DNA of 11,736 bases from the UHGV virus genome UHGV-0078047; one strand, 5' to 3'. The stretch comes from a virus. A model generated the notes under the pieces. It worked only from the letters and a program-made list of their open reading frames with translations. It did not search any database and was not told the DNA's origin. The position numbers and the translations under genes are program-made. This document shows, one piece after another, positions 1,908 through 10,649 of this stretch. Position 1 is the first letter of the stretch, and every line of letters begins with the position of its first letter.

Positions 1908-2558
1908 TTATGGAAGGTTTGCTAGTTTTGCATCGACAACTACGCCGATGATTTTGCAGTTCCCGTTGATCTCGATCATCGGATATTGTGGGTTAAGTGG
2001 TTTTAGAAACTTCCTGCCTGCATCAATAACTAACTTCTTGAAAGTTGCCTCGTTTTCTCCTTCGAGCTTTGCAACTACCAGTTTCCCGTTACGCGGCTCT
2101 ACTTCAGGATCGACGAGTATTATCATTCCTTCAGGGATACTGAGACCGGCCGGAGCCGTCATTGAGTCTCCCTTCACGTCCAACCAAAACGAATCTTCTG
2201 AACAGTCTACGGTTGTATCGTACCAGTTATCTATTGCACGCTTATGATATGGTTCTACAGCTTCCATCCAGCATCCTGCGCTCACCCAGCTAATCAGAGG
2301 GTATGACCCTCTTGGATCATGCCTACTGTGATAGGCAATGTTTGAAAGACTTTCCTCTCCTTTCATCAGATAGTCAGGGGAACACTTCAACGCATTAGCC
2401 AGGGCGAGAAGATTCTCTCCATTTGGCTCTGTCTCAGAGCGTTCCCACTGAGATATGGCAACATTAGACACGCCGACCATCTTTCCAAGTGCGGCCTGCC
2501 TGATCTTGAGTTCTTTTCTCCGAGCGCGAATGCGCTCTCCCATCAATTGAGTTTTCAT
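1908..2558 (-). CDS. c2: P22 c2-type repressor (CI-like, HTH plus LexA-like C-terminal domain), 216 aa
   Basis: ORF in track. MKTQLMGERIRARRKELKIRQAALGKMVGVSNVAISQWERSE... matches P22 c2 closely as I recall it; divergently arranged with cro across the operator region. Confidence 0.95.
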   Translation of the reverse strand: MKTQLMGERIRARRKELKIRQAALGKMVGVSNVAISQWERSETEPNGENLLALANALKCSPDYLMKGEESLSNIAYHSRHDPRGSYPLISWVSAGCWMEAVEPYHKRAIDNWYDTTVDCSEDSFWLDVKGDSMTAPAGLSIPEGMIILVDPEVEPRNGKLVVAKLEGENEATFKKLVIDAGRKFLKPLNPQYPMIEINGNCKIIGVVVDAKLANLP

Positions 2559-3258: not shown

Positions 3259-3405
3259 ATGACAAAACAACTCAGTCCTTACCAGGACAAAATTCACAAA
3301 CACATACTACGTGATCGCTTCCTGTCCAGCTTCAAGCAGCCTGGTCGATTCCGGGCTGAGTTGGAAAAAGTGAAGCTGATGCAGAAGGAGAAAGGTCATG
3401 ATTAA
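3259..3405 (+). CDS. possible small protein, 48 aa, between cII and the O-like gene
   Basis: Hand translation [56 protein letters not shown] at 3249..3253. Its ATG and RBS sit where lambda has the O start. 3' end overlaps the O-like ATG by 8 nt. Confidence 0.35.
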
Positions 3406-4258
3406 TCTTGCAACCGTAACACATTTAAGGCCTTCACAACGGCCTGTGGAGCGTCGTGTGGCAGAAGTTGAAGATGGTTATACCCGTCTTGCAAATGCCC
3501 TGTATGAAGAGCTTATCGGCGCAGATTTAACGAAAAATCAGAGCAAGGTTGCCCACGCCATATGCCGTAAAACATACGGCTACGGTAAAAAGATGGATCG
3601 CATCTCTGATAGTCAGTTAGCTCAAATTACCAGGCTGCCAAGACAGAAGGTAAACAAGGCCAAGAATGAGCTTATCGCGATGAAGGTTATCCTTCGCGAA
3701 GGCCAGCAAATCGGGCCTAACAAGAACATCGAAGAATGGAAAATCGAAGGGTGTCACTACTCTGGTGATAATGTCACTGCATTGGTGACAAAAAGTGTCA
3801 CCAAAACGGTGACAGCGCTGTCACCAAAACAGGGACACACAAAAGAAACTATTACAAAAGAAAAAAGAAATAATAAAAACACTATGTCCGAAAGTGTTCG
3901 GACGGAGTGTGAAAAATCACCTGACCGTCACGAAGAAACCGACAAGGCATTCGAGGAAATATTCTGGTGTGCAGGCATGCGGAAAGCCGGGAAGAAAAAC
4001 GCAGCTACGGCATTCAGAACACAGTTCAGGGAATGGCGTAAAACTACCAAGGGTACGGCAAGCGAGTTTGCCACGATGCTGGCAGAAGACATCGCATGCA
4101 GGAATGGTAAGCAGTTCGGATTCGACAGGTTGTTACCATCGAGCTACCTGAACGGTCAGCGCTGGAACGACGAAAAGCCAGAAACCATTCAACCACAATC
4201 TAAACCATCATCCGCAATCACCGTATCGAAAACTGGCTACGTGTTTTTCGACAGGTGA
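3398..4258 (+). CDS. O: replication initiator, lambda O-like N-terminal domain with divergent C-terminal domain, 286 aa
   Basis: Residues ~25..115 ([14 protein letters not shown]...[11 protein letters not shown]...[16 protein letters not shown]...GPNKNIEEW) align with the lambda O N-terminal domain from memory. Contains the iteron array. C-terminal half not lambda-like. Confidence 0.9.
3751..3885. repeat. origin of replication: inverted-repeat iterons plus AT-rich tract inside the O-like gene
   Basis: Repeated GTCAC...GTGAC palindromic units, including TGTCACTGCATTGGTGACA (3772..3790), GGTGACAAAAAGTGTCACC (3784..3802) and GGTGACAGCGCTGTCACC (3808..3825), followed by an A/T-rich stretch at 3841..3885. 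Same layout as ori-lambda. Confidence 0.6.
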
Positions 4259-4261
4259 ACC

Positions 4262-4369
4262 ATGAAATCAAAAATCAAATCGCTACTGGTCGCTGGTTAT
4301 AACCACGGCTGGTTAAGTATTTCGTTTGTCGATTTCTGGTTTAAAAATCTCAATCTGAGGGAATCATGA
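4262..4369 (+). CDS. possible small hydrophobic peptide, 35 aa, translationally coupled to the primase/helicase gene
   Basis: Hand translation MKSKIKSLLVAGYNHGWLSISFVDFWFKNLNLRES. AGGTGA RBS at 4253..4258; its stop overlaps the primase ATG as ATGA (4366..4369). Confidence 0.3.
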   Translation: MKSKIKSLLVAGYNHGWLSISFVDFWFKNLNLRES

Positions 4370-6246
4370 CGCCAAGTGAACTTAGCGACCTGCTTTGGGC
4401 GCAGGTTGACAGGGTGGCTCCGCACCTGTTGCCGAACGGCAAGAAAGAGGGGCATGAGTGGGTTGCCGGTAACGTCAACGGTGACAAGGGAAACAGCCTT
4501 AAGGTCAACCTTAGCGGCAAGAAAAAATGGGCTGATTTCGCTGAGGGAGACGGCGGTGACATGCTTGATTTGTGGATGGCATGTCGAGGAATTAACCTGC
4601 ATCAGGCTATGCAGGAAGCGAAAGCATTTCTCGGTATCAAGGATGACGATCACCATTTCGATGCCAAACGTGAGAAGAAATTCTCCAGACCTGATCGCAA
4701 GAAAATCGCCCGCTACGTTACCAGAACAGAATCCCATCTTGAGTACCTGCAATCGCGTGGCATATCGCCAGAAGTCGTAAAGCGCTACGAGGTTGTCAGC
4801 GGCAAGGTGTGGAATGGAGAACGAGAACTGGATGCTCTGGTGCTTCCGTACAAACGCGATGGTGAGTTGTTGCAGGTCAAGCGAATCAGCACTGAGCGCC
4901 CGGACGGGAAGAAAGTCATTATGGCAGAAGGTGATTGCGAACCTTGTCTGTTCGGATGGCAGGCTCTGGACGCTGGCGTGAGGGCGGTTGTGCTTTGCGA
5001 AGGCGAAATTGATTGTATGAGCTATGCGCAATACGGCATCTCGGCGTTATCCGTGCCGTTTGGTGGCGGGAAAGGTGCTAAGCAACAGTGGATTGAGTTT
5101 GAGTATCACAACCTCGACAGGTTTGAGGAGATATTCATCTCGATGGACGTTGATGATGTTGGTCGTGAAGCCGCAAGGGAAATCGCAAGCCGACTCGGTG
5201 AACATCGTTGCCGTCTTGTTACTCTGCCGTACAAAGACATCAACGAATGCCTGATGAACGGTGTTACCGAGGATGAAATCTGGCAGTACATCGGCACGGC
5301 ATCCTACTTCGATCCTGAAGAACTCTACAGTGCGCGAGAGTTTTACCAGGACACTATCAACGCTTTCTACGGCAAGCAGCAGTATCTGTTTAATCCACCG
5401 TGGGAATCTCTGGCAGATAAATTCCAGTTCCGTGAGGCAGAGTTGACGCTGGTCAATGGTGTGAACGGTCACGGAAAAACGGAGGTTGTCGGGCATATGG
5501 CACTTGAGGCAATGCGTCAGGGTGTGAAGACGTGCATCGCGTCACTTGAGCTGAAGCCAGGCATTCTCCTTAAGCGACTTACCCGTCAGGCAACGTGCTG
5601 CAAGATGCCGCCAGTGCTGGAAATTGACTCTGCATTTAAATTTTATGACGAAAGACTTTGGGTGTTTGGCCTGACCGGAACGGCGAAAGCCGACAGGCTG
5701 ATCGAAATATTCGACTACGCTCGCCGCCGATACGGTATCCAGTTATTCATCATCGACAGCCTGATGAAATGTGGCATAGGCGACGATGACTATAACGGGC
5801 AGAAGGCGTTTGTTGACTCGATTTGCGACTTCAAAAACAAAACAAACTCCCACGTCATTCTCGTTACTCACTCGCGAAAAGGAGACAGCGAAGAAAAACC
5901 AACCGGGAAAATGGACGTAAAAGGCTCTGGAGCGATAACAGACCTGACAGACAACCTTTTCATCATCTGGCGTAACAAGGCTCGCGAGAGAGCGTTACAG
6001 AGAGTTCAGAGTGGTGAAAAGATGTCAGAGAAGGACGAACAGCTACTGGCATCTCCGGCATCTGTTTTGATGCTTGAAAAACAACGTAACGGCGAAGGTT
6101 GGGAGGGTGGTGTCCCGTTGTTCCTTGACGAGCAATCGCACCAGTTCCTGCAACTTGAATCAGGATCGCCATATAGCTACATCGCCAATATGCCGAAATC
6201 GGAATATGACGAGGCGTGGCGACAGGAAAACGTGACGGAGTATTAA
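4366..6246 (+). CDS. bifunctional DNA primase/helicase (Toprim domain plus RecA-fold helicase), 626 aa
   Basis: Toprim signatures VLCEGEIDCMSY and MDVDD; Walker A NGVNGHGKTE; Walker B-like LFIIDSLMK. N-terminal region looks like a cysteine-free analog of a primase zinc-binding domain. Occupies the position of lambda P. Confidence 0.9.
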   Translation: MTPSELSDLLWAQVDRVAPHLLPNGKKEGHEWVAGNVNGDKGNSLKVNLSGKKKWADFAEGDGGDMLDLWMACRGINLHQAMQEAKAFLGIKDDDHHFDAKREKKFSRPDRKKIARYVTRTESHLEYLQSRGISPEVVKRYEVVSGKVWNGERELDALVLPYKRDGELLQVKRISTERPDGKKVIMAEGDCEPCLFGWQALDAGVRAVVLCEGEIDCMSYAQYGISALSVPFGGGKGAKQQWIEFEYHNLDRFEEIFISMDVDDVGREAAREIASRLGEHRCRLVTLPYKDINECLMNGVTEDEIWQYIGTASYFDPEELYSAREFYQDTINAFYGKQQYLFNPPWESLADKFQFREAELTLVNGVNGHGKTEVVGHMALEAMRQGVKTCIASLELKPGILLKRLTRQATCCKMPPVLEIDSAFKFYDERLWVFGLTGTAKADRLIEIFDYARRRYGIQLFIIDSLMKCGIGDDDYNGQKAFVDSICDFKNKTNSHVILVTHSRKGDSEEKPTGKMDVKGSGAITDLTDNLFIIWRNKARERALQRVQSGEKMSEKDEQLLASPASVLMLEKQRNGEGWEGGVPLFLDEQSHQFLQLESGSPYSYIANMPKSEYDEAWRQENVTEY

Positions 6247-6275
6247 ATGACCATCTACATCACTGAGCTAATAAC

Positions 6276-6308
6276 AGGCCTGCTGGTAATCGCAGGCCTT
6301 TTTATTTG
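6276..6308 (+). terminator. intrinsic terminator after the replication genes (tR2-like position)
   Basis: Perfect 8-bp stem AGGCCTGC (6276..6283) / GCAGGCCT (6292..6299), 8-nt loop, then TTTTTATTT. Confidence 0.7.
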
Positions 6309-6322
6309 GGGGAGAGGGAAGT

Positions 6323-6649
6323 GTGGCTGACTGGCAAATTCCAATCATCATTCTTGCCGGAGCTTCGCTGGTTGCTGGCTTTATCCTGCTGAAAAAGCAT
6401 AAAGACCGTGATCAAAAAGTCGAAGTTCTCTATGGGTATCCAGCGAACAGCACAACATGGCTGACCATTTACCACTACCGAAAATCAGGCCGCTGGGTAT
6501 TCGAATGGGATGATCTGTTCGCTGAAAAGCGACCAAAGTCATGGGGAGACATCAGCGAATGCATGATGTTTGAAGAAAGAAAATCCGGCGCAACCCGAGA
6601 AGAGTTTAACGAAGCGTGGAGGCGATTAAGTGAGAGAGGGTATTTGTGA
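6323..6649 (+). CDS. hypothetical protein with N-terminal hydrophobic segment, 108 aa
   Basis: ORF in track; GTG start with AGGGAAG RBS. Residues 6..23 (IPIIILAGASLVAGFILL) form a predicted hydrophobic helix followed by lysines. No family recognised. Confidence 0.7.
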   Translation: MADWQIPIIILAGASLVAGFILLKKHKDRDQKVEVLYGYPANSTTWLTIYHYRKSGRWVFEWDDLFAEKRPKSWGDISECMMFEERKSGATREEFNEAWRRLSERGYL

Positions 6650-6846
6650 GCAAGTACGAAAAATTAGATCAAAACATTCTTTCAATGCTGAGTGAAAGAC
6701 CAACACCTATTTTTGATATCTGGCTTAAATGGCGGAGCAATGGAATGTATATCGAAACCATCGATCGCCGTATGCAATACCTGAGAAAGAAAGGGCTTGT
6801 TGCAAATGTGCGTGGGAAGGGTTGGGTGAAAATTAACCTGTCATAA
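6646..6846 (+). CDS. hypothetical protein, 66 aa
   Basis: ORF in track; GTG start overlapping the upstream stop (GTGA); GAGAGAGGG RBS upstream. Confidence 0.6.
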   Translation: MSKYEKLDQNILSMLSERPTPIFDIWLKWRSNGMYIETIDRRMQYLRKKGLVANVRGKGWVKINLS

Positions 6847-6857
6847 CGGGGATTGAT

Positions 6858-7130
6858 ATGGACGAATCAAGAAAGCAGTTTGAAGAGTGGTTTAAAAACA
6901 AATATCACGTTTCAAGTGACGTGATGAAGATTATGCACATCAAGGTCGAGATTGCATGGGAGGCGTGGCAGGCATCGCGAGCAGCTATTGAAATAACCGC
7001 GCCAAAGTTTATCGACAGCAGAGAAGCATTAGCCAAAGGGTTTACTGTTGATTATTCCAATGGCTTCGGTGATGGAATGGATGCTTATGAGGAAAACATC
7101 CGCGCTGCTGGAGTCAAAGTGAAGGAGTGA
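6858..7130 (+). CDS. hypothetical protein, 90 aa
   Basis: ORF in track; RBS-like GGGGA upstream of the ATG; same strand and tight spacing with neighbours. Confidence 0.65.
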   Translation: MDESRKQFEEWFKNKYHVSSDVMKIMHIKVEIAWEAWQASRAAIEITAPKFIDSREALAKGFTVDYSNGFGDGMDAYEENIRAAGVKVKE

Positions 7131-7132
7131 GT

Positions 7133-7297
7133 ATGAGCGCATACGAAGAAATCATGTTAGCCCTGCGATTCTTTTTCGGTGTGGAAGAAGATGAAAACGT
7201 AAATGAGATTATCGGGCAAGACCATGACCCGATAGGGACTATTGCAGCTGCACTTGACGATTACAGGAGCGTAAATGGTGAGGAAACTAACGTTTGA
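7133..7297 (+). CDS. possible small acidic protein, 54 aa
   Basis: Hand translation MSAYEEIMLALRFFFGVEEDENVNEIIGQDHDPIGTIAAALDDYRSVNGEETNV. AAGGAG RBS at 7120..7125; begins 2 nt after the orf90 stop and overlaps the ninB start. Confidence 0.4.
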   Translation: MSAYEEIMLALRFFFGVEEDENVNEIIGQDHDPIGTIAAALDDYRSVNGEETNV

Positions 7298-7718
7298 ACT
7301 AAGAAGCCCCATCCATCAGCGGAACGCCATTCAAGCTATCCAGCAAATCCTTCCAGACCCAACCAAACCAATCGTAGTAACCATTCAGGAACGCAACCGC
7401 AGCTTAGACCAGAATCGGAAGCTTTGGGCTTGCCTTGGTGACGTCTCTCGTCAGGTTGAATGGCATGGTCGCTGGCTGGATGCAGAAAGCTGGAAGTGTG
7501 TGTTTACCGCAGCCTTAAAGCAGCAGGATGTTGTTCCTAACCTTGCCGGGAATGGCTTTGTGGTAATAGGCCAGTCAACCAGCAGGATGCGTGTAAGCGA
7601 ATTTGCGGAGCTATTAGAGCTTATACAGGCATTCGGTACAGAACGTGGCGTTAAGTGGTCAGACGAAGCGCGACTGGCTCTGGAGTGGAAAGCGAGATGG
7701 GGAGATAAAGCTGCATGA
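7275..7718 (+). CDS. ninB: NinB (Orf) recombination protein, 147 aa
   Basis: ORF in track; ...PDPTKPIVVTIQERNRSLDQNRKLWACLGDVSRQVEWHGRWLDAESWKCVF... matches lambda NinB nearly throughout from memory. Confidence 0.9.
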   Translation: MVRKLTFELRSPIHQRNAIQAIQQILPDPTKPIVVTIQERNRSLDQNRKLWACLGDVSRQVEWHGRWLDAESWKCVFTAALKQQDVVPNLAGNGFVVIGQSTSRMRVSEFAELLELIQAFGTERGVKWSDEARLALEWKARWGDKAA

Positions 7719-8305
7719 ACAAATACCGACTTATTTACGCAGATCCGCCTTGGCAATATCGCGACAAAGCCAACGATGGCAATCGCGGTGCTGGACATAA
7801 ATACGATGTTATGAATGTTCAGGACATTTGCCGACTGCCAGTATGGGATTTAGCGGATCCAGAATCTTGCTTGTTAGCGATGTGGTGGGTGCCGACACAG
7901 CCAGCCGAAGCGCTAAAGGTAATTGAGGCGTGGGGATTCAGGTTGATGACTATGAAAGGCTTTACTTGGCACAAAACCAATAAGCACAAAGGCAACAGTG
8001 CGATCGGAATGGGGCATATGACCCGGGCAAATAGCGAGGATTGCTTGTTTGCTGTTCGAGGGCGGTTGCCTGAGAGAATGGACGCTTCCATATGCCAGCA
8101 CTTTACCGCACCGAGAATGGAGCACAGTGCAAAACCACCGATCGTAAGAGACATGTTAGCTAAGTTGCTTGGCGACGTGCCGCGCTGTGAGTTATTTAGC
8201 CGCGACAAAGTGACCGGGTGGGATATGTGGGGCAATCAGTGCGACTCCGATTTTGAACTGGCTACCGGCATGGCGATTAAACCATGCAAAATGGTGATCG
8301 CATGA
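7715..8305 (+). CDS. DNA methyltransferase, MT-A70-like (N6-adenine class) with DPPW motif, 196 aa
   Basis: ORF in track; N-terminal YADPPWQY catalytic motif; start overlaps the ninB stop (ATGA). Sits where lambda has ninC. Confidence 0.8.
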
Positions 8306-8980: not shown

Positions 8981-9156
8981 TGCTTAGCCCATCCCAATCC
9001 ATTCAATACCAGAAAGAAAGCGTCGAGCTGGCTTTAACGTGCGCTAACTGCGGTCAGAAGCTGCATGTTCTGGAAGTTCACGTATGTGAGCACTGCTGCG
9101 CAGAACTGATGAGCGATCCGAATAGCTCAATGTACGAGGAAGAAGACGATGAGTGA
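8980..9156 (+). CDS. ninF: NinF-like protein, 58 aa
   Basis: Hand translation [58 protein letters not shown], close to lambda NinF as I recall it. ATG overlaps the upstream stop (TAATG). Confidence 0.75.
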   Translation: MLSPSQSIQYQKESVELALTCANCGQKLHVLEVHVCEHCCAELMSDPNSSMYEEEDDE

Positions 9157-9418
9157 TTTCTCTGAGCTTATTTCCTTCAAAAAAGACAGAGAAGAAATGC
9201 GGACTGAATCTGTCTATTACGTTCAACACCGGAATAAACGCTCGGTGCTTGATCAGGAGCTGGTTATTACCGGAGACCTGGCATTCAGAACATATAAGGC
9301 CAGCATGGAAATGAAGGATTTCCCTAAATGTGGTTCTGAAAGAGAAGCCGCGTTAAAGCTGGCTGAGTGGATGCAGAGAATGGCTGCTGCAATTGAGAAT
9401 TACTGGAGCGAACCATAA
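9149..9418 (+). CDS. hypothetical protein, 89 aa, inserted between ninF and ninG
   Basis: ORF in track; start overlaps the ninF end and stop overlaps the ninG ATG (TAATG). No family recognised. Confidence 0.65.
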
Positions 9419-10029
9419 TGGCTAAACAAGCGCGAAGACGATGTAAAAACGATGATTGTCGGGAATGGTTTCACCCTGCATTCGCTAATCAGTGGTGGTG
9501 CTCTCCAGAGTGTGGAACCAAGATAGCACTCGAACGACGAAGCAAAGAACGCGAAAAAGCGGAAAAAGCAGCAGAGAAGAAACTACGACGAGAGGAGCAG
9601 AAACAGAAAGATAAACTTAAGATTCGAAAACTCGCCTTAAAGCCCCGCAGTTACTGGATTAAACAAGCCCAACAAGCCGTAAACGCCTTCATCAGAGAAA
9701 GAGACCGCGACTTACCATGTATCTCGTGCGGAACGCTCACGTCTGCTCAGTGGGATGCCGGGCATTACCGGACAACTGCTGCGGCGCCTCAACTCCGATT
9801 TGATGAACGCAATATTCACAAGCAATGCGTGGTGTGCAACCAGCACAAAAGCGGAAATCTCGTTCCGTATCGCGTCGAACTGATTAGCCGCATCGGGCAG
9901 GAAGCAGTAGATGAAATCGAATCAAACCATAACCGCCATCGCTGGACTGTCGAAGAGTGCAGGGCCATCAAGGCGGAGTATCAGCAGAAACTCAAAGACC
10001 TGCGAAATAGCAGAAGTGAGGCCGCATGA
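9418..10029 (+). CDS. ninG: NinG (Rap) recombination endonuclease, 203 aa
   Basis: ORF in track; [41 protein letters not shown]... with Cys clusters matches lambda NinG from memory. Confidence 0.9.
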
Positions 10030-10649
10030 GACTCGAAAGCGTAGCTAAATTTCATTCGCCAAAAAGCCCGATGATGAGCGACTCACCACGGGCCACGGCT
10101 TCTGACTCTCTTTCCGGTACTGATGTGATGGCTGCTATGGGGATGGCACAATCACAGGCCGGATTCGGAATGGCTGCATTCTGCGGTAAGCATGAACTCA
10201 GCCAGAACGACAAACAAAAGGCTATCAACTATCTGATGCAATTTGCACACAAGGTATCGGGGAAATACCGTGGTGTGGCAAAGCTCGAAGGAAATACTAA
10301 GGCAAAGGTGCTGCAAGTGCTCGCAACATTCGCTTATGCGGATTATTGCCGTAGTGCCGCGACGCCGGGCGCAAGATGCAGAGATTGCCACGGTACAGGC
10401 CGTGCGGTTGATATAGCCAAAACAGAGCAGTGGGGGAGAGTTGTTGAGAAAGAGTGCGGAAGATGCAAAGGTGTCGGCTATTCAAGAATGCCAGCAAGCG
10501 CCGCATATCGCGCTGTAACGATGCTAATCCCAAACCTTACTCAACCCACCTGGTCACGCACTGTTAAGCCGCTGTATGACGCTCTGGTGGTGCAATGCCA
10601 CAAAGAAGAGTCAATCGCAGACAATATTTTGAATGCGGTCACACGTTAG
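10026..10649 (+). CDS. Q: late-gene antiterminator Q, lambda type, 207 aa
   Basis: ORF in track; [28 protein letters not shown]...[12 protein letters not shown]...[13 protein letters not shown] matches lambda Q essentially throughout from memory. Start overlaps the ninG stop (ATGA). Confidence 0.95.
10313..10326 (-). promoter_or_regulatory. putative paQ CII-binding site (TTGC-N6-TTGC) antisense within Q
   Basis: Plus strand GCAAGTGCTCGCAA is TTGCGAGCACTTGC on the minus strand. Lambda has a CII-activated antisense promoter inside Q. Confidence 0.45.

Follow-up and report, generated by a model that had tools for sequence, protein, structure and literature searches.

In phage lambda, the product of ren protects against Rex exclusion, and the nin region of lambdoid phages has been described since the early genome comparisons as a place where small genes are shuffled. 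The annotation of Shigella phage Sf6 (AF547987), another member of this group with a similar set of small genes, is reportedly that of Casjens and colleagues from 2004. We examined four small open reading frames (ORF1 to ORF4) in a stretch of 11,736 nucleotides (nt) of the viral genome UHGV-0078047, hereafter the window. A previous note made without database searches (the sequence-only reading) had placed them where lambda has ren and had proposed them as an undescribed exclusion, defence or anti-defence module. We found that they are very probably four separate, non-essential accessory genes of the nin gene pool, located between the tR2 terminator block and ninB, expressed as delayed-early genes and translationally coupled, and that they do not form a unit. 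The nin pool has been cited as comprising 30–50 genes, about ten of which are present in each phage (PMC5630979).

We first consider the position of the four ORFs. A conserved boundary block precedes them, and its 27-residue ORF corresponds to Sf6 gene 45, which is annotated there as similar to NinA of phage 21. The terminator in this block consists of an 8-bp stem with 6 G-C pairs (6276-6299) followed by TTTTATTT, with a folding energy of -16.7 kcal/mol (z = -3.1 against shuffled sequences), which agrees with the terminator that the sequence-only reading had seen ahead of the four ORFs. Positions 6247-6322 of the window are nearly identical, base for base, to lambda 40567-40642, i.e. the ren-ninB spacer that carries tR2, and also to the Sf6 sequence 'bsq6'. 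In lambda this spacer measures 73 nt, the ATG of ninB follows one nucleotide after the block, and ren, which overlaps P, precedes it. In the window, the stop codon of the primase-helicase gene (6244-6246) abuts the block with no gene in between; hence no gene occupies the ren position, and it is on the other side of the tR2 block, before ninB, that the four ORFs have been inserted. The placement at the ren position was thus not borne out: the ORFs lie downstream of the block that ren precedes, and none of them resembles Ren (best BLASTP E value 0.13; no match in a tblastn search of the window with Ren). The idea that ORF2 is a relative of Ren had no support and was dropped: the hhalign probabilities were 2.3% and 4.9%, the latter for the ORF2 family against Ren plus a homologue.

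Two metagenomic loci hold a Ren homologue and an ORF1 relative side by side. In a prophage (locus L264, 3651-4318), a 117-residue Ren homologue shares an ATGA overlap with the start of an ORF1 relative with 58% identity, and its C terminus NECRQSGAMQRVLSVYG matches KECRQSAAMKRVLAVYG of lambda Ren; Ren and ORF1 are therefore distinct and able to coexist. The same pair was present in L265 (3651-4318), in an apparent deleted prophage remnant between integrase-side and tail genes.

Over positions 6250-6883 the window is 98.7% identical to Sf6 30319-30952. The Sf6 counterpart of 6247-6330 is gene 45, together with tR2 and bsq6; those of ORF1 and ORF2 are genes 46 and 47, respectively. In an experimental evolution study of Sf6, 61 out of 82 isolates carried deletions of part or all of genes 46-58, and the deletion phages were viable and lysed faster (PMC5630979).

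We then defined the slot as the interval from the ninA/tR2 block to ninB, and compared its content among phages and prophages. The 124 distinct slot sequences (489-1734 nt) fell into 30 gene arrangements, which supports the view of the sequence-only reading that this is a variable cargo position in lambdoid genomes. The most common arrangements were TM68-ORF3 (19 slots), ORF1-c5_78 (18 slots) and ORF1-ORF2-ORF3 (16 slots), while the order of the window, ORF1-ORF2-ORF3-ORF4, was present in 9 slots and ORF1 alone in 7. The tR2 stem-loop was found in 117 of the 124 slot sequences with up to 3 mismatches, a count that is partly circular because the slots were defined by a match to the 27-residue ORF. 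To score co-occurrence, loci were anchored on each ORF in turn and the remaining ORFs were searched by tblastn. Among the 80 loci anchored on ORF1, 48 contained ORF2, 46 contained ORF3 and 10 contained ORF4; among the 80 anchored on ORF3, ORF1 and ORF2 were both present in 15 and ORF4 in 7; and 10 of the 48 loci anchored on ORF4 had both ORF1 and ORF2. A similar pattern was observed in 5426 complete Escherichia coli genomes, where ORF1 was present in 108, ORF2 in 64, ORF4 in 26 and the full-length ORF3 allele of the window in 18, and only 8 genomes contained at least 80% of the four-ORF block. The query with the whole interval matched 2008 E. coli genomes, which reflects the conserved flanking joints. 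The four genes assort independently, and diverged relatives of ORF1 and ORF2 were never adjacent in the loci examined. The proposal of an undescribed four-gene module had made conservation as a unit its own test, and no such conservation was found, so that proposal falls.

The sequences at the borders of the slot genes were shared by unrelated genes. The last genes of different slots all ended in ...EETNV across the start of ninB, and unrelated genes at the fourth position started with MSMS after the ...AAGVKVKE end of ORF3; these recurring ends and starts are therefore recombination joints, like the boundary sequences of Sf6. Besides the four ORFs, the slots contained the small multi-helix membrane proteins TM68 (68 residues) and TM63 (63 residues), a 78-residue protein paired with ORF1 in 19 slots, DUF7301 and an FlbD-like protein of 84 residues. 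In NCTC9112, ninB was immediately preceded by a gene for a Lar family protein, and another slot contained a Lar-like zinc finger. One locus had an HNH-type insertion within ninB (cluster 31).

By gene order and Pfam matches, the window is from a lambdoid, P22-like prophage, of which it covers the early-right (pR) arm (Table 1). The four ORFs occupy the nin position: they belong to the pR operon and have its orientation, with the replication genes on one side and the Q-type antiterminator on the other.

Table 1. Features of the window (positions in nucleotides from its first letter; E values are from Pfam).
Feature	Position	Strand	Start and length	Remarks
LexA-family repressor	1908-2558	-		
cro and cII	between the repressor and the O-type initiator			
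O-type initiator	3398-4258			Phage_rep_O, 1.1e-37
Primase-helicase	4366-6246		626 aa	Toprim + DnaB_C/AAA_25 fusion; neither a lambda P-type loader nor a plain DnaB
Conserved boundary block	6247-6330	+		contains the 27-aa hydrophobic ORF MTIYITELITGLLVIAGLFIWGRGKCG and the terminator; overlaps the start of ORF1
tR2-type intrinsic terminator of the pR operon	6276-6305	+		annotated as tR2 in Sf6
ORF1	6323-6649	+	GTG, 108 aa	
ORF2	6646-6846	+	GTG, 66 aa	
ORF3	6858-7130	+	ATG, 90 aa	
ORF4	7133-7297	+	ATG, 54 aa	alternative 7127-7297, GTG, 56 aa
ninB (lambda Orf-type recombination mediator)	7275-7718	+		NinB, 3.9e-54; right-hand anchor of the variable slot
MT-A70 methyltransferase, NinD, NinX, NinF, NinG	after ninB, in this order			
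Q-type antiterminator	10026-10649			followed by a holin

The arrangement of four tight ORFs on the + strand between a terminator and ninB was as the sequence-only reading had described it, with the same spacing: ORF1 and ORF2 share a GTGA overlap (6646-6649), ORF2 and ORF3 are 11 nt apart, the ATG of ORF4 follows ORF3 after 2 nt, and the last 23 nt of ORF4 overlap ninB. Close packing is common to the nin genes of all lambdoid phages (PMC8022706) and is therefore no evidence of a module. For ORF4, the ATG at 7133 is the more likely start than the GTG at 7127, because AAGGAG is located 5 nt upstream of it and the databases hold the 54-residue form. The exact proteins of ORF1, ORF2, ORF3 and ORF4 were public on 33, 324, 339 and at least 1000 contigs, respectively, always labelled "hypothetical protein". 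Searches of Pfam, NCBIfam, PADLOC and PDB sequences, with single sequences and with family alignments, returned no characterised homologue for any of the four, in line with the sequence-only reading, which had recognised none of them. In particular, PADLOC-DB v2 had no family for ORF1, ORF3 and ORF4, and ORF2 matched only a CARF model below significance (E 0.041, 11.8 bits); no toxin or defence match was found for any of the four, and none matched Lar_restr_allev (PF14354) in Pfam. Literature searches with phiTE_015, the protein accessions and Sf6 gp46/gp47 returned nothing specific, and none of the four genes is mentioned in the main text of a functional screen of phage accessory genes (PMC12373910). 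In Rfam, the four-ORF interval had no RNA family match.

ORF1 belongs to phrog_5903 (E 1.1e-75) and is the equivalent of Sf6 gene 46. The N-terminal hydrophobic helix that had been predicted for it was recovered in two ways: the 19-residue Kyte-Doolittle mean reached 2.28 at residues 5-23, and the AlphaFold2 model, built from a 28-sequence alignment, placed a helix at residues 5-27. The Kyte-Doolittle mean was at least 1.6 in 24 of the 28 family members. The model (mean predicted local distance difference test score, pLDDT, 86.8; predicted template modelling score 0.67) continued with strands at residues 32-39, 46-52, 57-63 and 81-84 and a C-terminal helix at 92-104. The flanks of the N-terminal helix were acidic on the N side and basic on the C side in most members, and the soluble domain would accordingly face the cytoplasm by the positive-inside rule. 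ORF1 is thus probably a single-pass inner-membrane protein, N-out/C-in, with a conserved cytoplasmic domain of a beta-sheet plus a helix, as far as the model and the flanking charges indicate. Searches with the model returned only two matches in BFVD, both uncharacterised homologues, and no match to a known fold or a solved structure. Insertions and deletions in the G-run at ~6308-6320 fused the 27-residue ORF in frame to ORF1 in a few genomes (P0001 and P0004); the fusions, of 133-137 residues, would have two hydrophobic helices. Other changes in the same run destroyed the membrane helix of ORF1 (P0018).

The ORF1 family comprised 58 clusters and has the core motif YGYP..WLT.YH.R..FEWDDLF..RP; identity within the aligned set fell to as little as 42%. 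The family was common to temperate lambdoid and P22-like phages and to virulent enterobacterial phages (T5-like, T1-like and Goslar); relatives in virulent phages were found in Goslar (237 kb), KookSpook (112 kb), seszw/IME207 and C1/HC8A. Since the family is shared with strictly virulent phages, it is unlikely to exist for protecting lysogens. The soluble core was recognised at 42–45% identity in the nucleus-forming jumbo phage Goslar (NC_048170, 180280-180516), in KookSpook (PP925842, 13309-13533) and in locus L262, a 148-kb metagenomic contig that also carried DNA_pol_A and HNH genes. The contexts of the diverged relatives were after lambda P plus Ren, next to an integrase (Pantoea), after DnaB or a primase-helicase, next to Phage_phiTE_015 genes, and on the 148-kb contig; the neighbours differed in every one of them and no partner was conserved at depth. 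A scan of genome contigs for ORF1 gave a single locus, in Pantoea. In different phages, the ORF1 cassette was located downstream of all three replication types, namely P-type, DnaB and primase-helicase.

ORF2, the equivalent of Sf6 gene 47, belongs to phrog_7185 (E 2.8e-34), is basic (isoelectric point, pI, 10.2) and shares with its family the motif DRRLQALRKKGLI...GKGW. Several winged-helix models matched it below threshold, all on residues ~18-63: Rrf2 in 6 of 14 family members (best E 0.025), HTH_Crp_2 (E 0.067), LexA_DNA_bind, MarR_2 and HxlR. IscR chains in PDB (E 0.23-0.33) and the 'transcriptional regulator' family phrog_2440 (E 0.015) were likewise below threshold. From these matches, it is plausible that ORF2 is a minimal winged-helix DNA-binding protein. 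Relatives with ~36% identity were present on 537 plasmids, 450 of them predicted to be conjugative and most from Klebsiella or Citrobacter, and relatives with 31–48% identity were present in 171 other viral contigs of IMG/VR. In two plasmid loci, Klebsiella pS245-3 (L274) and E. coli pKFu015_1 (L275), the ORF2 relatives stood among uncharacterised genes near HNH endonuclease genes.

ORF1 was located directly upstream of ORF2 in all 50 loci anchored on ORF2. These copies were 94–98% identical, and the linkage needs no explanation beyond the common descent of a single segment. No ORF1-family gene was found within 2.5 kb of diverged ORF2 relatives in any of the 80 phage loci examined, nor near the ORF2 relatives in the two plasmid loci checked. 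In turn, ORF2 gave no tblastn match near diverged ORF1 relatives in four loci, and the gene lists of the others had no consistent partner. The ORF1-ORF2 linkage is shallow and is lost at depth.

ORF3 belongs to phrog_343 (E 1.9e-29) and to the Pfam family PF26207 (Phage_phiTE_015). All 120 listed relatives of ORF3, including those with 93–97% identity, have a precomputed PF26207 match, and the Prokaryotic Genome Annotation Pipeline names a 99%-identical E. coli copy 'phiTE_015 family protein'; the direct Pfam scan of ORF3 gave no match, apparently for want of the newer PF26207 model in the copy used. We found 627 relatives, and ORF3 was a nearly constant resident of the slot. Its model (pLDDT 78.5) was mostly helical and had only generic structural matches. 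In this family, which is mosaic within the gene, the N-terminal helix and the motif W.AWQASRAAIEI are conserved, whereas the middle is hypervariable and differs in length (~14-42 residues); the allele of the window has a short middle segment. Two other alleles (P0122 and P0169) had exactly the N-terminal half of the window's ORF3 combined with a different C-terminal half, which suggests a recombination joint inside the gene.

ORF4 belongs to phrog_1603 (E 1.7e-32). It is very acidic, with 13 aspartate and glutamate residues against 2 lysine and arginine residues in 56 residues (pI ~4), and its family of 26 clusters shares the invariant motif DPIGTIAAALDDYR. It had no match in Pfam, PADLOC or PDB, and contained no cysteine and no zinc-finger motif.

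All four ORFs are real coding genes, judging from their sequence conservation. Each matched its PHROG family end to end (E 1e-75 to 2e-29), their protein families are conserved down to ~31–65% identity with invariant motifs, Shine-Dalgarno-like sequences lie at the correct spacing ahead of them, and the AlphaFold2 models of ORF1 and ORF3 were confident. That some of them could be chance reading frames in a spacer might be argued from their short length, from the two GTG starts and from the synonymous to non-synonymous codon changes in near-identical copies (19:18 for ORF1, 4:8 for ORF2, 4:6 for ORF3 and 21:17 for ORF4), counts that are too small to be decisive; against the conservation just listed, we give this explanation practically no weight. 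It is also very improbable that the four genes together form an undescribed defence or superinfection-exclusion module expressed in the lysogen. Lambdoid prophages do carry exclusion genes, the slot is variable, and ORF1 is membrane-anchored like several exclusion proteins; nevertheless, conservation of the four genes as a unit was not seen, they have no PADLOC match, and they are located not at the ren position but behind tR2 in the CI-repressed pR operon, where ORF1 starts 17 nt after the T-run of the terminator. A simple consensus scan of 6000-7800 found no sigma-70-like promoter on the + strand, a scan by which a weak or non-canonical promoter could be missed. Moreover, ORF1 has relatives in virulent phages, which form no lysogens. 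The exclusion or defence role that the sequence-only reading had considered is, for a lysogen, unlikely on the same grounds.

A smaller unit is somewhat easier to defend, although we still consider it improbable: ORF1 and ORF2 as a membrane effector with a winged-helix regulator or neutraliser, in the manner of an exclusion or toxin-antitoxin-like system, with ORF3 and ORF4 as unrelated neighbours. The constant order of the two genes in the ORF2-anchored loci, their GTGA overlap and their joint presence in Sf6 speak for such a pair, as does the finding that in L264 and L265 a small winged-helix-like gene, the upstream Ren homologue, again overlaps an ORF1 relative. However, ORF1 occurred without ORF2 in 32 of the 80 ORF1-anchored loci, either with the 78-aa gene or alone, and in more E. 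coli genomes than ORF2 did; the near-identity of the linked copies makes plain shared descent sufficient; the diverged relatives of each gene lacked the other in the loci tested; no PADLOC or toxin-antitoxin family matched; and no relationship between the ORF2 family and Ren could be detected. Less improbable than the pair, and compatible with four separate accessory genes, is the possibility that at least one gene is an anti-defence factor that acts singly in lytic growth, for which ORF4 would be the best candidate as a small acidic inhibitor or decoy; we regard it as unlikely. Other phages have Lar-family restriction-alleviation genes at the last position before ninB, ORF4 combines its acidity with a strictly conserved core, the patchy distribution fits arms-race cargo, and the dispensability in a laboratory host, as in the Sf6 deletions of part or all of genes 46-58, fits a host-specific counter-defence. 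On the other side, there is no sequence or structural similarity to known anti-defence proteins, and the Lar position is weak evidence, given that the slot also holds small membrane proteins and families of unknown function.

Several points weigh against the reading of four separate, non-essential nin genes. The loci were taken from IMG/VR, which is biased to sequenced enterobacteria, and every set was collected around one of the four genes. The invariable position of ORF2 after ORF1 in near-identical copies would agree with the two genes functioning as a pair in this lineage. The Sf6 deletions are reported as "part or all" of genes 46-58 and not gene by gene for 46 and 47 (PMC5630979). Given what the promoter scan could miss, some expression in the lysogen is possible. 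Finally, the functional part of this reading is an inference from sequence and model.

If the four genes are separate nin accessory genes, their transcription would depend entirely on readthrough of tR2 by N-modified RNA polymerase from pR, and their expression would be delayed-early, in lytic growth or upon induction, as expected from lambda biology. The overlapping or near-abutting stops and starts would favour coupled translation, as seems to be the case across the nin region. The comparison of the slots shows that each gene is a cassette, and that recombination exchanges these cassettes at short joints that are conserved, namely the ninA/tR2 block, the ...AAGVKVKE-stop/MSMS-start junction and the ...EETNV end over the ninB start; the four-gene set of the window is therefore one of many combinations and not a functional unit. 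ORF1 would be anchored in the inner membrane by one N-terminal helix, with its domain in the cytoplasm, and its relatives in virulent phages point to a role at the membrane in lytic infection. ORF2 may act as a minimal winged-helix DNA-binding protein, a suggestion for which the evidence is weak, next to a presumably helical ORF3 and a small, very acidic ORF4. The general role of these genes would likely be host modulation or counter-defence that is useful in some hosts only. Counter-defence is the most attractive guess, particularly for the acidic ORF4, and amounts to guilt by position. More specifically, ORF1 might represent an unstudied family of membrane-tethered early proteins for host takeover or counter-defence (e.g. 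against membrane-associated abortive infection) and, separately, ORF4 might be a new acidic inhibitor at the Lar position, a tentative proposal that we rate as rather unlikely.

Regarding the rest of the window, the closest cultured phages overall were Sf101 and mEp043, which cover 55% and 49% of it, respectively, at ~97.6% identity. The only Rfam match was a full-length one to the cIII thermoregulator Lambda_thermo (RF01804) at 73-131 on the - strand (88.5 bits, E 5.5e-21), a match that identifies the left end of the window as the cIII region of the pL operon. An 89-residue ORF at 9149-9418 on the + strand, between NinF and NinG, had no Pfam match and is another cassette of the nin region.

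The finding itself matters little, in that Sf6 and hundreds of prophages contain nearly the same genes, annotated as hypothetical. The slot is now precisely delimited, from the tR2 block to ninB and not at the ren position, and comes with a catalogue of alternative cassettes, and the four genes are better treated singly than as a block. Among them, only the ORF1 family would be a sensible and inexpensive choice for screens against defence systems, in view of its confident model, the lack of a known fold and the occurrence of relatives in virulent phages, jumbo phages included.

Compared with known systems, the four genes have likenesses that stop short of a functional assignment. P22 SieA, T4 Imm, lambda RexB and the Kil-type proteins are membrane-anchored phage proteins of exclusion or host modulation, and ORF1 is likewise a small phage protein with a membrane helix; it has, however, no sequence match in Pfam, NCBIfam, PADLOC or PDB, and its location behind tR2 and its occurrence in virulent phages speak against an exclusion role expressed in the lysogen. 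The Lar/Ral genes, which take the last position before ninB in some relatives, are small, non-essential and early, as ORF4 probably is, whereas ORF4 lacks the cysteines, the zinc-finger motif and the Lar_restr_allev match, and the other three ORFs have no such match either. ORF3 belongs to PF26207/phrog_343, a family without functional information, so that membership explains nothing. Lambda ren shares with the four ORFs a small size, a place close to where the replication genes of the pR operon end and, probably, dispensability, and both Ren and ORF2 are small proteins that match the winged-helix model HTH_Crp_2 below threshold (E ~0.06 each); in contrast, ren directly overlaps P upstream of tR2, the four ORFs follow tR2, and Ren has no significant sequence similarity to any of them. 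Sf6 shares the operon position, the strand, the overlapping starts and stops, and the mosaic behaviour with conserved boundary sequences. It differs in having a DnaB-type helicase instead of the primase-helicase replication module, gene 48 (102 residues) at the position of ORF3, where the DNA match takes in only the first ~26 nt of ORF3, and an 84-residue gene of the HK022 gp60 type where the window has ORF4. The four genes are thus already known, both as sequences and as a phenomenon, the shuffling of the nin region.

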